The notes below the pieces were generated by a model. It was given only the letters and a program-made list of their open reading frames with translations. It was not told where the DNA came from and made no database searches. The position numbers were made by a program, and so were the translations under genes. A stretch of DNA of 64,000 bases from Octopus vulgaris (taxonomy: Eukaryota), in the NCBI GenBank assembly GCA_951406725.2, contig OX597829.1:6076001-6140000 (forward strand). Reading direction: 5' to 3'. Of the stretch, positions 11,016 through 41,915 are shown piece by piece. How positions within the stretch are numbered: position 1 is the stretch's first letter; every line of letters begins with the position of its first letter.

Positions 11016-11607
11016 CTATTTTCATCATCCTTGTGGCTATGGCGAAAGAATGTATCTGGTGGACGCGTCTGAAAGGATTGGAGACAAACACTTTCCTCTC
11101 TGGTCAATCTCTCATTAACTTCTTCAAGTACCACTTGAAAAGGAAAGTGAAAGTAGAGAGGCAAGTTTTGTCTAGTGAACGTTTCAAAAAAATATTGGTG
11201 AATGTAGCAAGGATGGCACGTATGAATGTCGAAGCCACTTTGAGCATAAGCCTATGAACCCGGAAAATTTAAAAGAGAGGGTTACCAACTTGCAAACAAA
11301 TGTGGTAACATATAACAATATTGACCGAGGTTACCGTGGTCTTTTCCGTAGGCTTTTCTTCCCACGGATAAACCTTATCTGCTTCCCCCTTTACACTTTA
11401 CACCATGACACTGTGATACACGATCCCCATTGATCGTTTTGTTTCCTTTTTCCCTTTTTTTTTTCTTCTTTCCTTTTACGAAACCTTTTGATCGAAAACC
11501 TAACCCACCTCTTATTATTTCTTTCTTCTTCTCTCTCCGCAAAAGAAAAGCTCTACTTTGTAATCTGTCCCGTCTGTGTGCCGCCCTGTGTGACTAATAA
11601 AGAAACA
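11016..11607 (+). mobile_element. Tx1/L1-type non-LTR retrotransposon, 5'-truncated copy 1 (ORF2 C-terminus + 3'UTR)
   Basis: Encodes IFIILVAMAKECIWWTRLKG...; ends CTAATAAAGAAACA followed directly by (TATC)n; near-identical to copies 2-4. Confidence 0.9.
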
Positions 11608-11706
11608 TATCTATCTATCTATCTATCTATCTATCTATCTATCTATCTATCTATCTATCTATCTATCTATCTATCTATATATATATATATATCTATCTAT
11701 CTGTCT

Positions 11707-12918
11707 AGGATGCGGCCCGATGGTCAGGCGATCCATTTGCTGTCAACACCCGTTAAAAGGAGGGCTGGGCATGCCGTGGTTGATGATGCGCAGACACGCG
11801 AAAAGACTGCGACATCTCAGGCTCTACGTAGACGACGGTGAACAGGTGTGGTCACCGTTTGTGAGGCACGCTTTCCCGCAACTCGACTCCATGACTGAAC
11901 TGCAGTCGTGGATCAAAAAGAGGCCGAGAAAGGGCGAATGGCACCGCGAGTGTCGCGTTGCTCTCAAGCAACTATGCCATCCCGGATCACCTTGAGTGAC
12001 TTCAACACAACCAAAGCATTCTGTAGGGAATTAGTGGAGGGGAGGTACGACGACGAGCTCTGGGCGAACCTGGACGTCGACGAGGAATACCTGACCCGCC
12101 TGTTCAGGACGACTTTCGGGCCAGGGCCCATGGACAACTTCCAGAGATCCCTGGCCTGGCAGTGCTACCGAAAAGCGCTACCCGTTCGGGATAAGCTCTA
12201 CAGACACGGCTCGAGAAACACGGGGCTGACCTGCCCGAGATGCGGTCAGAGCGACGAAACCGTTCTGCATGCACTCGTGCAGTATCCAACAATTTCCGAC
12301 CTGTGGGCTTATGTCGAACAACTGCTATCAGGTGTGGGACGAGTCGGTTTATCCGCCAAGTCTATCGTCAATATTGTCACGCCTCCTTCAAACGGGAAGG
12401 AAGAGCTATTTTCATCATCCTTGTGGCTATGGCGAAAGAATGTATATAGTGGAACGTCTGAAAGGATTGGAGACAAACACTTTCCTCTTTGGTCAATCTC
12501 TCATCAACTTCTTTAAGTATCACTTGAAAAGGAAAGTGAGAGTAGAGAGGCAAGTTTTGTCTAGTGAATGTTTAAAAAAAAGATAGGTGAATGTAGCAAG
12601 GATGGCACGTATGAATGACGAAGCCACCTTGAGCATAATCCTATGAACCCGGAAATTTAAGAGAGGGTTAGCTACTTGCAAACAAATGTGGTAACATGTA
12701 ACAATATTGACCGAGGTTACCGTGGTCTTTTCCGTAGGCTTTTCTTCCCACGGATAAACCTTATCTGCTTCTCCCTTACACCTTACATCATGACACTGTG
12801 ATACACGATCCCTATTGATCGTTTTTTTCTTTTGTTTCTTTTTCTTTTTTCTTTCTTCTTTCCCTTTTACGATCCCTTTTGATCGAAAACCTACCCCAAT
12901 ATGGCTAATAAAGAAACA
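11707..12918 (+). mobile_element. Tx1/L1-type retrotransposon, 5'-truncated copy 2
   Basis: GGLGMP motif and C-terminal CCHC finger CPRCGQSDETVLHALVQ(Y), with frameshifts. (TATC)n on both sides. Small deletion in the 3'UTR. Confidence 0.92.
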
Positions 12919-13462
12919 TATCTATCTATCTATCTATCTATCTATCTATCTATCTATCTATCTATCTATCTATCTATCTATCTATCTGTCTGTCTGTCTT
13001 TCTGTATGTATGTATGTCTGTCTGTCTGCCTGTCTGTCTGTCTATCTATCTATCTATCTATCTATCTATCTATCTATCTATCTATCTATCTATCTATCTA
13101 TCTATCTATCTATCTATCTATCTATCTATCTATCTATCTATCTATCTATCTATCTATCTATCTATCTATCTATCTATCTATCTATCTATCTATCTATCTA
13201 TCTGTCTATCTATCTGTCTGTCTCTCTGTCTGTTCATCTATCTATCTATCTATCTATCTATCTATCTATCTATCTATCTATCTATCTATCTATCTGTCTA
13301 TCTATCTGTCTGTCTCTCTGTCTGTTCATCTATCTATCTATCTATCTATCTATCTATCTATCTATCTATCTATCTATCTATCTATCTATCTATCTATCTA
13401 TCTATCTATCTATCTATCTATCTATCTATCTATCTATCTATCTATCTATCTATCTATCTATC
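12919..13462 (+). repeat. (TATC)n / GATA microsatellite array with TGTC variants
   Basis: Directly visible; it separates Tx1 copies 2 and 3. Confidence 0.97.
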
Positions 13463-38962: not shown

Positions 38963-39036
38963 GTAAGTGACCTTCCCTCTTGCCTCTTGTCTCTTCCAAT
39001 GTTGTGTGTGAAACACAATTTTCGTAAACGTCAATT

Positions 39037-41650
39037 ATGCTTAAATTAGGTTGTGTGAATGCGCGTGGCTTGGCGTCAGCTTGGTAGCAAGGTTACCTTC
39101 TAAACGACATCAAGTCACTGAACGTGGATATAGTAGCTATCAGTGAAACCAGACTCAGCAAGCCGCGGGCCCTTGCGTCCATGTTTGGCGATCAATCCGA
39201 CATTTATTTTTCTCCCTGTCTGCCGAACATGGGTGGTGGAGGTACCGCGGTGCTTTTTCGAAAGAGTCTAAATGTAAAAGTAAGACCAATATTCCTAGAC
39301 CCGGAGGGTAGGCTGGTTGTCTTGGACGTGGATGGCATAAATGGGTGTGCATTCCGTCTAATGGCAGTTTATGCACCGTCCTTAACGGGTCGGGCGGATT
39401 TCTTCAGAAGTCTAGAGGTTTTCCTGGGTACGTCTAGACCTTTACTGTTAGTAGGGGATTGGAACGCTACCTTGGACACGCATCTAGATTATGTAGGAAT
39501 GGATAGGAATAGAAGGGGGTGTAAGTGCTTCAAAGACCTACTCAGACGTTTCCATTTGTCTGACAGGTTCCGACTCGACCATCCGAACGTGCCAACGTGT
39601 ACTTGGACAAACCGCGTCGGATCGTCGAGATCTCATCTAGATAGAATTCTATGCAGGACAGCGGATAGGGATAGTGTAGGATGTCCACAATTTAAAATAG
39701 TCAGCTACACAAATCACAAATTTGCGACGTGTACGCTCGACTTAGATAAGATACATAGACAGGGTCCCGGTTACTGGAAACTGAACACGTCGCTCTTAGG
39801 GCGACAGGTTTACAGGAACCGGATTAGCGAGTTAATTAAGAGGGCGCTGACGGGAGCCGTCGTTAACAACCGCTGGTGGTTCGCCCTGAAAATGGCAATA
39901 AAATCGGAATCAATTAGGTTTTTGCAAGGAATTAGCGGTAGATCGAAATAGTGTAGAGGGAGACCTGGTTAAGAAACTAGAAGAGGCACTTACCACTGGC
40001 AGCGCAACCAACGTGCTGGCTGCGAGGATGGCCCTCGAACAACACCTCAACGCCAAACACGAAGGTTGCGTCGTCAGAGCTAAAATGCGTGCCTTAAGGA
40101 ACGAAGGGATCGAAGCTGCGCGAGAGGCCCGGGTAGCGGAGGCGCAGCGTTGGAACAGAGCCACCATTCGGTCTCTAATAGATCAACAGGGATGCAGTTT
40201 ACTCGAACCCGAAAGGATGTGCGAGGCCTTTCAACAGCACTTTGCTCGACTGTTTGGTGCAAGTGGTGGGTCGGAACGCGGGATGGATTTCAGTGCCTAC
40301 CTGACCAACCTGCCGCGGCTCTCGGCAAGAGAAGCGGAGTGTTGTGAAAGTCCCATCACAGCCGCCGACGTGCGGGATGTGATGGCGGGCTGCGCGAGGG
40401 ATAAGTCGCCTGGATTGGATGGTTTACCCTACGAGCAATATTGTCAAATGCCAGACTTGTTTGGCGACCTCTTGTCATCAGTCTACTGCAACTGGCAACA
40501 AAACAGGAGAATCCCCGGTTTCGTGAGCCGAGGTGCAGTGACGTTGCTGAACAAAGACCCAAACAAGGGGAATTTTATAGATAATTTCAGGCCCATCACT
40601 CTGCTCAACGCAGATTTGAAAATTTTGGCCAAAGTAATAGCCGAGAGGTTGGCGCTTGTCATTGGTAAACTGGTCGACAGGGCGCAAACATGCGCCGTCC
40701 GGGGCAGAACCATACATGACAACCTCCATCTGATGCCCTACATTGTGGACAGGGTAGTTAAGGATCCTGGCATGGGTGGGGGCGCTGATCAATTTGGATC
40801 AGTCTAAAGCCTTCGATAGGGTCGACCATCGGTACTTGGCGGCCGTCCTCAGGGCGGCTGGCTTCGGTCCCGTCTTCCGCGGTTGGATCGCTACCTTGTA
40901 TAGCGGCATCCGATCGGTGATTCGGGTGAACGGTCACCTGTCGAAACCGTTTGACATCACGCGTTCGGTCCGTCAGGGGTGTCTCCTGTCGGCGCTTCTG
41001 TATGTATTGACTCTCGAGCCGCTACTACGGAAGCTGGCGACACTGAGGGGCATCTCACGGGAACTGGGTTGCGGGACGAGCGTGTCGGCATATGCGGACG
41101 ATGTCACCGTCATAGTGTCGAGCGACAAACACATCCAGATGATAAGCGAGACACTAAGAAAATACGAAACGGTGACGGGGGCGAAGATTAACCCGGAAAG
41201 GTCAGTGGGTTTGCTACTCGGCACCTGGAGAAGCAAGCCCATGCCGTCCGACTGCGGCTCAGTAGTGGGGCGCTGGACGGACAGACCGGTTAAATTGCTC
41301 GGGGTCTGGTTCAGTCCGGACCTCCAAATGGATAAGACCTGGGACGAGATCACGAGTAGAGTGGTCGCTCTCAGCCAAACATGGGCCGAGAGAAAGCTGT
41401 CTCTAAAAGGTCGGGCGGAGGTGGCGAACGCGTACATCGCATCCGTCATCTACTACCGCCTGACCGTCGTGCCTTGTCCCGACGCTACCATCACCAAACT
41501 GGAACGCATACTCTTCCGCTTTCTGTGGAAGGGTGGCGTTCCGATGGTGTGGAAGTCCATTTGCTGTCAACATCCGTTGAATGGAGTACTGGGCATGCCG
41601 TGGTTGATGATGCGCAGGCATGCGCTGAGACTGCGGCATTTCTGGAACTT
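39037..41650 (+). pseudogene. ORF2: apurinic-like endonuclease + reverse transcriptase (stop at ~39085, frameshifts at ~39920 and ~40780)
   Basis: APE motifs NARGL, AISET, VYAP, GDWN, HLDRI, TNH. RT motifs KSPGLDGL, FRPITLLNADLKILAK, LDQSKAFDRV, VRQGCLLS, YADD. Confidence 0.93.
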
Positions 41651-41915
41651 CATCTATCTATCTATCTATCTATCTATCTATCTATCTATCTATCTATCTA
41701 TCTATCTATCTATCTATCTATCTATCTATCTATCTATCTATCTATCTATCTATCTATCTATCTATCTATCTAGCTATCTATGTCTCTCTCTCTCTCTCTC
41801 TCTCTCTCTGTCCACATATTTGTCTGTCTGAATCTTATTCTGTCTGTTTGACTATCAGTCTGTTTGATTGCCTGTTTGTTTGTCTATCTAACTGACTAAT
41901 TACTAACTATCTACG

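Follow-up and report, generated by a model that had tools for sequence, protein, structure and literature searches.

A 64,000-nucleotide stretch of the Octopus vulgaris genome (contig OX597829.1, positions 6,076,001 to 6,140,000 of the forward strand; hereafter the window, in whose own numbering features are given) contains six partial copies of a retrotransposon that lacks long terminal repeats (non-LTR) and is associated with (TATC)n microsatellite arrays, which read (GATA)n on the opposite strand. All six read in the sense of the TATC strand (+) and lie where a first-pass annotation made from the letters alone had placed them. Copy 1 (11016..11607) belongs to an older subfamily, 85-92% identical to the retrieved genomic copies and 80% to subfamily A, and retains after 5' truncation only the end of the second open reading frame (ORF2) and the 3' untranslated region (UTR). 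A (TATC)n array (11608..11707) separates it from copy 2 (11707..12918), which is also 5'-truncated, carries the zf-RVT region, and has lost ~100 bp within the 3' UTR with its last 20 bases present. A (TATC)n array of 544 bp, interrupted by TGTC (12919..13462), leads to copy 3 (13463..15221), a 5'-truncated member of the young subfamily A that begins at the YADD motif of the reverse transcriptase (RT), includes zf-RVT, has an intact 3' end, and is followed by a short decayed TATC/TGTC stretch (15222..15270). A (TATC)19 array (27591..27675), with no element farther upstream, precedes copy 4 (27674..28094; 421 bp, 5'-truncated, 3' end intact), and an interrupted (TATC)n array (28095..28389) lies between it and copy 5 (28390..~28922), which derives from within the ORF2 of a diverged subfamily (~80% to A) and has lost its 3' part. 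Copy 6 (36973..41654), closer to subfamily B (93% identity) than to A (79%), has a complete 5' end behind a (TATC)40 array (36812..36972) and has lost 1.1 kb at the 3' end; its first frame, ORF1 (37206-38318, 38195-38962), is frameshifted, as is its ORF2, in which an apurinic/apyrimidinic endonuclease-type (APE) domain (39088-39951; PF03372) is followed by the RT (39902-40807 and 40758-41654; PF00078), and a further (TATC)n array (41652..41807) lies immediately 3' of the break. These arrays too are read on the + strand.

The four preserved 3' ends, those of copies 1-4, have one junction in common, CTAATAAAGAAACA|TATCTATC (motif at 11594, 12905, 15208, and 28081), and no poly(A), and the break of copy 6 reads ...TTCATC|TATC, in phase with the adjoining array. 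Five 5' ends adjoin TATC arrays, and that of copy 1 adjoins a decayed TATC-like stretch, ATCTACCTACATCTCTCT. The junctions are thus as the first-pass annotation had them, but its claim that every long TATC array in the window touches a copy does not hold, since (TATC)9 at 51120-51155 contacts none. It had also joined copies 6 and 3 into a ~5.9-kb element with two ORFs; the two ORFs stand, but the copies, 85% identical across their 547-bp overlap, belong to different subfamilies (ORF2 80% identical), and the proposed reconstruction is therefore a chimera. Copy 3 is 98.1% identical to a full-length subfamily A copy at another locus (L128).

In the 2.8-Gb assembly containing the window, an exact 24-base pattern of the 3' end gave 8,771 matches, a looser pattern 10,570, and the subfamily B end 206, and reversed control patterns gave 0 genome-wide. 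The exact ends are followed by TAT[ACT] in 8,210 of 8,771 cases and by TATCTATC in 6,474 (74%); AAAAA directly follows in none of the 8,771, and poly(A) after 0-6 TATC units was found in none of 154 retrieved 3' ends. Among 100 copies sampled in order along sequence C1, the flank begins with TATC in 86 and with TCTC in one, and the base composition of its first five positions is T97 A99 T96 C88 T94. In one copy of this sample (c69, at L162), the 3' end is followed by (GATA)n, in the opposite orientation. Subfamily B, whose 3' ends were taken from 20 copies retrieved via their 5' ends, mostly finishes in ...GTGGCTACAATAAAAAGT, with TATC next in 17 of the 18 copies whose 3' end is in view. In all subfamilies, GCCCTGTGTGGC is present and an AATAAA precedes the junction by 4-7 bases; a comparison of 7 sequences over the final 90-110 bases gave no conserved RNA structure (3 pairs, without covariation). 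Sequencing contigs of runs X1 and X2 (organism A) and X3 (organism B) also have GATA repeats at the same junction, and the ORF2 end is present in contigs of eight organisms from 13 studies; among the public runs listed with it there is no RNA run, which has no bearing on expression.

At the 5' side, a TATC array precedes all 30 of the full-length ends retrieved from the best hits (40 listed of 555 candidates), although five of them, on C31, have a common flank and may be one duplicated event. The 5' junction is in view in 91 copies of the position sample (median length 498 bases; 3 of 91 full length), and of these 63 adjoin TATC, 4 have it within 45 bases, and 3 run into inverted or rearranged element DNA; among truncated copies, 60 of 88 adjoin TATC. 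The same adjacency criterion applied to 5,000 random window positions gives a background of 1.2%, which, together with the empty reversed controls, excludes chance. When flanks and repeat phase were tabulated, the 3' junction proved to be fixed before TAT and the 5' phase variable (TATC 15, ATCT 14, TCTA 9, CTAT 8), as expected from a looser second-strand step. Four copies (c76, c112, c134, and c153) have 5' inversions, which we take to resemble L1 twin priming.

Target duplications could be looked for in 69 informative pairs, those in which the 3' flank leaves perfect TATC early. Exact duplications of 6-16 bases starting at TAT are found in 14 of them (for example, TATCTATCCAGCT, TATTTACCTA, and TATATGTAA), lengths that may contain a few bases of microhomology. 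One insertion outside an array, c141 at L098, is 99.3% identical to subfamily A, and matching its short flank to sequencing contigs recovered an empty allele: a contig of run X2 joins both flanks as GCAGC-TATC^TATT-ACG, so the insertion is polymorphic, duplicated 1 base, and added no tail. A contig of run X9 also departs from the L098 stretch at the junction. The minimal target site is TATC^TAT, and since insertion leaves the empty site's TATT in place, the nick would lie no more than 3 bases from the junction. At L149, a copy has entered a 100-bp tandem repeat in one of its units; the unit left empty reads TATCTATCT, and the filled one has a 9-base duplication and one extra TATC unit, which could be explained by slippage or out-of-register priming.

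Perfect (TATC)8 runs start at 57,498 places in the genome, and the first 30 on C1 represent 27 distinct arrays. Copies are in contact with 18 of these, namely all 9 within the terminal 58 kb and 9 of the 18 farther in; the sample is small and from one chromosome end, but it shows high occupancy alongside the existence of free arrays. Copies are stacked head to tail in arrays. Within the terminal 58 kb, G000:C1:17000-58000 (L061-L066, L211-L219) forms a dense stack of several subfamilies in TATC arrays, and similar copies occur near the starts of C3 and C6. Four tandem copies at L126 (1059-7895) have an identical 5' truncation point and each its own array; they represent a 1.8-kb unit that was later duplicated in tandem, not four separate insertion events. 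Such clustering could in principle arise after unbiased insertion, if copies do no harm in GATA arrays and so persist or accumulate in them, as suggested for Drosophila Waldo-A/B (PMC3812793), but the 3' junction is fixed in phase and orientation, many other microsatellites in the region carry no copy, and association with arrays is tightest for the youngest copies (54 of 66 young truncated copies, at least 95% identical, adjoin TATC at the 5' end vs 30 of 48 old ones), so that passive accumulation is scarcely credible here.

The position of the arrays also decides whether the repeat is a target or part of the element. In long interspersed nuclear elements (LINEs) of the CR1/L2 type, a 3' microsatellite tail is element-encoded, and an element of this sort with little insertion preference would write (TATC)n at its own 3' end, with later copies landing in the tails of earlier ones. 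The 24 of 106 5'-adjacent arrays that are the 3' array of another copy could be read in this way, as could c93, c97, c109, and c129, in which an array is found on the 3' side alone, and the filled unit at L149 with one TATC unit more than its empty neighbour. However, the arrays of c23, c122, and c130 lie upstream of duplicated target sequence and are therefore flank, and the off-array insertions c42, c56, c83, and c141 have no TATC tail; these features, with TATC on the 5' side too, set the family apart from LINEs with encoded tails. Run length shows no difference between the two sides (133 pairs, p = 0.37), an asymmetry first seen (median 47 vs 24, p = 0.01) being gone once pairs were not selected on the 5' array. 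The (TATC)8 run starts (57,498) stand against ~10,600 3' ends, and 9 of the 27 sampled arrays are copy-free. No 3' end of A/C type lies within 700 bases upstream of 82 of the 106 5'-adjacent arrays, an upper bound because ends of B type were left out of the count. An encoded tail is thus very improbable. The first-pass annotation had proposed the repeat as target, to be given up if TATC occurred only at 3' ends with unique 5' flanks; instead, copies with varied truncation points still adjoin TATC upstream.

Full-length copies measure 6.1-6.4 kb in subfamily A and ~5.85 kb in subfamily B, and the ORF2 proteins of the two, which have the same target, are 79.6% identical. Of 10,121 candidate matches to the A endonuclease, the 150 that were scored are all at 100% identity, 85 of them in an open ORF2 frame of 1,149 amino acids (aa) and 101 in a frame of at least 1,128 aa. 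Among thirty of those loci, the APE DNA differs by 0.28%, a value biased low because the loci were selected for identity, and median identity over 2.2 kb is 99.5%. On these sequences, the family is young, with many near-identical and apparently intact copies. ORF2 contains PF03372 (APE), PF00078 (RT), and PF13966 (C-terminal cysteine motif); its best solved relative is human L1 ORF2p (E 3e-53), with which the APE catalytic motifs align. ORF1 is 766 aa long at L103 and is predicted to carry a CCHC knuckle (zf-CCHC, E 0.004, below the curated cut-off) and two domains resembling the RNA recognition motif (RRM). Its predicted model (predicted local distance difference test score, pLDDT, 95) matches tandem-RRM proteins (Foldseek E 3e-5) and the La RRM (Z 9.0, root-mean-square deviation 2.7, 82 aligned), and RRM and ACT-type folds match its second domain equally; L1 ORF1p is not among the fold matches listed for the model, which excludes nothing. 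ORF1 appears to be exchanged between subfamilies: L105 (881-7269) and L103 (compared with L128 and L143) combine the 5' end and ORF2 of subfamily A (99%) with a central ORF1 from another subfamily. Subfamilies A and B have a common GACGGACG start, and in the full-length subfamily A copies at L099, L101, L103, L105, L110, L111, and L128, a short variable stretch ending in ACAATG lies between the array and that conserved start.

RRM-type domains and a CCHC knuckle are a feature of ORF1 in the Tx1 clade, and the family presents this combination, its RRM-like domains being predicted, beside an ORF2 of Tx1 type with APE, RT, and the C-terminal cysteine motif. Among named proteins, one of Argonauta hians is nearest, at 69% over part of ORF2; protein searches and a cluster look-up returned no named Tx1 member. 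RT trees were built by a quick method with the Shimodaira-Hasegawa-like approximate likelihood ratio test (SH-aLRT) as their only support measure, on 75 rows and then on 44, after removal of 31 long-branch or near-duplicate rows, and neither contained named Tx1L, Kibi, Koshi, Keno, or mammalian L1 rows. An octopod clade (SH-aLRT 99-100) is sister to the P0002 group at 42-46% identity (99-100), and the TATC family falls among relatives inserted in U2 or 5S genes, apart from Closterium and presumed plant rows (89-93); the flanks of these relatives, which are metagenome contigs, were identified by Rfam as U2 (L276, L283, L285) and 5S (L288, L290). Membership in the Tx1 clade is likely, the relatives compared being the unnamed U2-/5S-inserted ones.

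The preferred reading, to which we assign a probability of about 0.85, is a young non-LTR retrotransposon of several subfamilies, likely of the Tx1 clade, which enters existing (TATC)n/(GATA)n microsatellites in a single orientation by a sequence-selective APE nick and target-primed reverse transcription. Several observations weigh against it. About 26% of 3' ends lack two perfect units next to them, and TA-repeat and single TAT sites are also used. At the 5' junction, 21 of 91 position-sampled copies have no TATC, old copies lack it more often (15 of 48), and behind the array of copies with TATC only at the 3' side no duplication was found. No duplication is visible in 55 of the 69 informative pairs, and several of the 14 that are visible sit in low-complexity DNA. 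Finally, the Tx1 placement comes from quick trees with SH-aLRT of 89-93 and no named references.

Under the preferred reading, the ORF2 endonuclease would nick the GATA strand at or within 3 bases of 5'-GATA^GATA-3', and the reverse transcriptase would start at the nick. RNA cleavage falls 10-30 bases after AATAAA and would here lie in the downstream array, leaving UAUC units on the RNA. With less assurance, the transcript may read past AATAAA into the array and its UAUC may pair with the nicked GATA end, so that the starting point of copying would lie upstream of any poly(A). Such priming, to which we give about even odds, is suggested by the fact that poly(A) is wholly absent although AATAAA is present. 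Insertion would leave TATC on both sides, so the site would stay a target and copies would stack. That the APE domain itself sets GATA specificity is likely by analogy, because the endonuclease carries target specificity in Tx1L, TRAS1, and R1Bm (PMC1919474). RNA-target pairing has likewise been described for SART1Bm and R1Bm (PMC7265360). In the reverse arrangement, the endonuclease would be loose, and specificity would come chiefly from pairing between RNA and DNA or from tethering of the particle by a host protein that binds GATA repeats. This would suit the zero count of poly(A) junctions. It would also suit the strong fixation of no more than the first three flank bases (T97, A99, and T96 of 100) and the fifth (T94), for which short pairing could be the reason; three paired bases cannot, however, account for insertion in arrays over the far commoner single TAT sites. 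Two of three internal 3' breaks fall at in-phase TATC-like element bases, as pairing would allow, but one internal break has the same 5' end as the copy next to it and has the appearance of a later duplication. Because published target-specific APE elements also hold their specificity in the enzyme (PMC1919474), a loose endonuclease is judged improbable.

Elsewhere in the window, two ORF pieces on the - strand (22566-24538) match no Pfam family at E 0.01 and resemble, in their motifs, a Penelope-type RT and GIY-YIG endonuclease. A repeat of ~400 bases, 75-94% alike and on both strands (8184-8614, 18545-18969, 21065-21468, 22075-22474, 54545-54993, and 59050-59455), is probably a short interspersed nuclear element (SINE). 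An ORF at 61728-62255 has a 58-unit GAA tract between segments that resemble a pogo/Tigger-type transposase remnant.

No report of a TATC/GATA-targeting LINE was found in the open-access literature, the scope searched; there is a small but appreciable chance that the family has already been described somewhere. Repeat annotation of Octopus vulgaris lists 80 L1-Tx1 families, 13 of them recently active with 421 insertions (PMC13282606), and a consensus of the TATC family may well be among the 80; the accessible text of that paper states no target preference, and the accessible parts of two others (PMC8967140; PMC8869645) add none. GATA/TATC joins the list of repeat targets. With its near-identical copies, its junctions numbering in the thousands, its polymorphic sites, and a target common to two subfamilies, the family makes the roles of endonuclease and pairing directly testable. 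In octopods, the structure and length variation of GATA arrays may be owed in part to this family, octopod GATA microsatellite markers may often adjoin a mobile element, and a GATA-specific retrotransposon could interest builders of site-specific gene-insertion tools. A tentative extension, possible though the less likely course, is an independent origin of this specificity in a deep invertebrate Tx1 lineage, perhaps from an ancestor that, like the U2-inserted elements, cut TATCT, that dispenses with poly(A) priming and primes by pairing of read-through UAUC with the nicked GATA strand. If so, with ~100 long open ORF2 copies and about half of sampled long arrays occupied, the element would be a main force shaping the arrays, and its target duplications would lengthen them and supply it with new targets.

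Among known systems, the R1-clade elements SART1Bm, TRAS1Bm, and R1Bm resemble the octopus family in oriented, repeat-specific APE insertion and in RNA-target pairing that aids priming, as it may in the octopus family, but differ in clade, in the poly(A) tail that SART1Bm requires, and in their telomeric or rDNA targets (PMC7265360; PMC1919474). Relatives of Keno type (U2) and Mutsu type (5S) were obtained in the same ORF2 search at 27-29% identity to the query and fall in the same part of the RT tree. Their junctions retain a tail of A-rich sequence or poly(A), whereas the octopus family has none, and it lies outside the U2-inserted clade of L276, L283, and L285 (SH-aLRT 96-98) and targets a repeat rather than a gene, its flanks being TATC, so that it is not of Keno type. 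The 3' flank of two U2-inserted relatives, L283 (5853) and L285 (5839), begins with TATCT, the same five bases as in the TATC family, a lead on how the specificity arose. Microsatellite-targeting Tx1 elements are represented by the teleost elements Kibi, on (TC)n, and Koshi, on (TTC)n (PMC4494074; PMC3812793), and by crocodilian families that target (TTCC)n/(TTTC)n (PMC4494074), and the targets printed in the accessible part of one review are ACAY, AC, TC, TTC, and TAA (PMC3812793); the mechanism of such targeting by APE-type retrotransposons was described there, in 2013, as poorly understood. Tx1 families have been called target-specific when >20% of flanks are of one kind (PMC4494074), a level exceeded by the 74% of 3' ends with TATCTATC and the 63 of 91 5' junctions with TATC. 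Like Kibi, Koshi, and the crocodilian families, the octopus element is an APE-type, two-ORF element residing specifically in a microsatellite, but its flanks (86 of 100 TATC, 1 TCTC) are not theirs, its target unit contains A, its host is a mollusc, and it exceeds 10,000 copies. It is therefore a known kind of system, a repeat-targeting APE element, with TATC/GATA as a target repeat not found in print.

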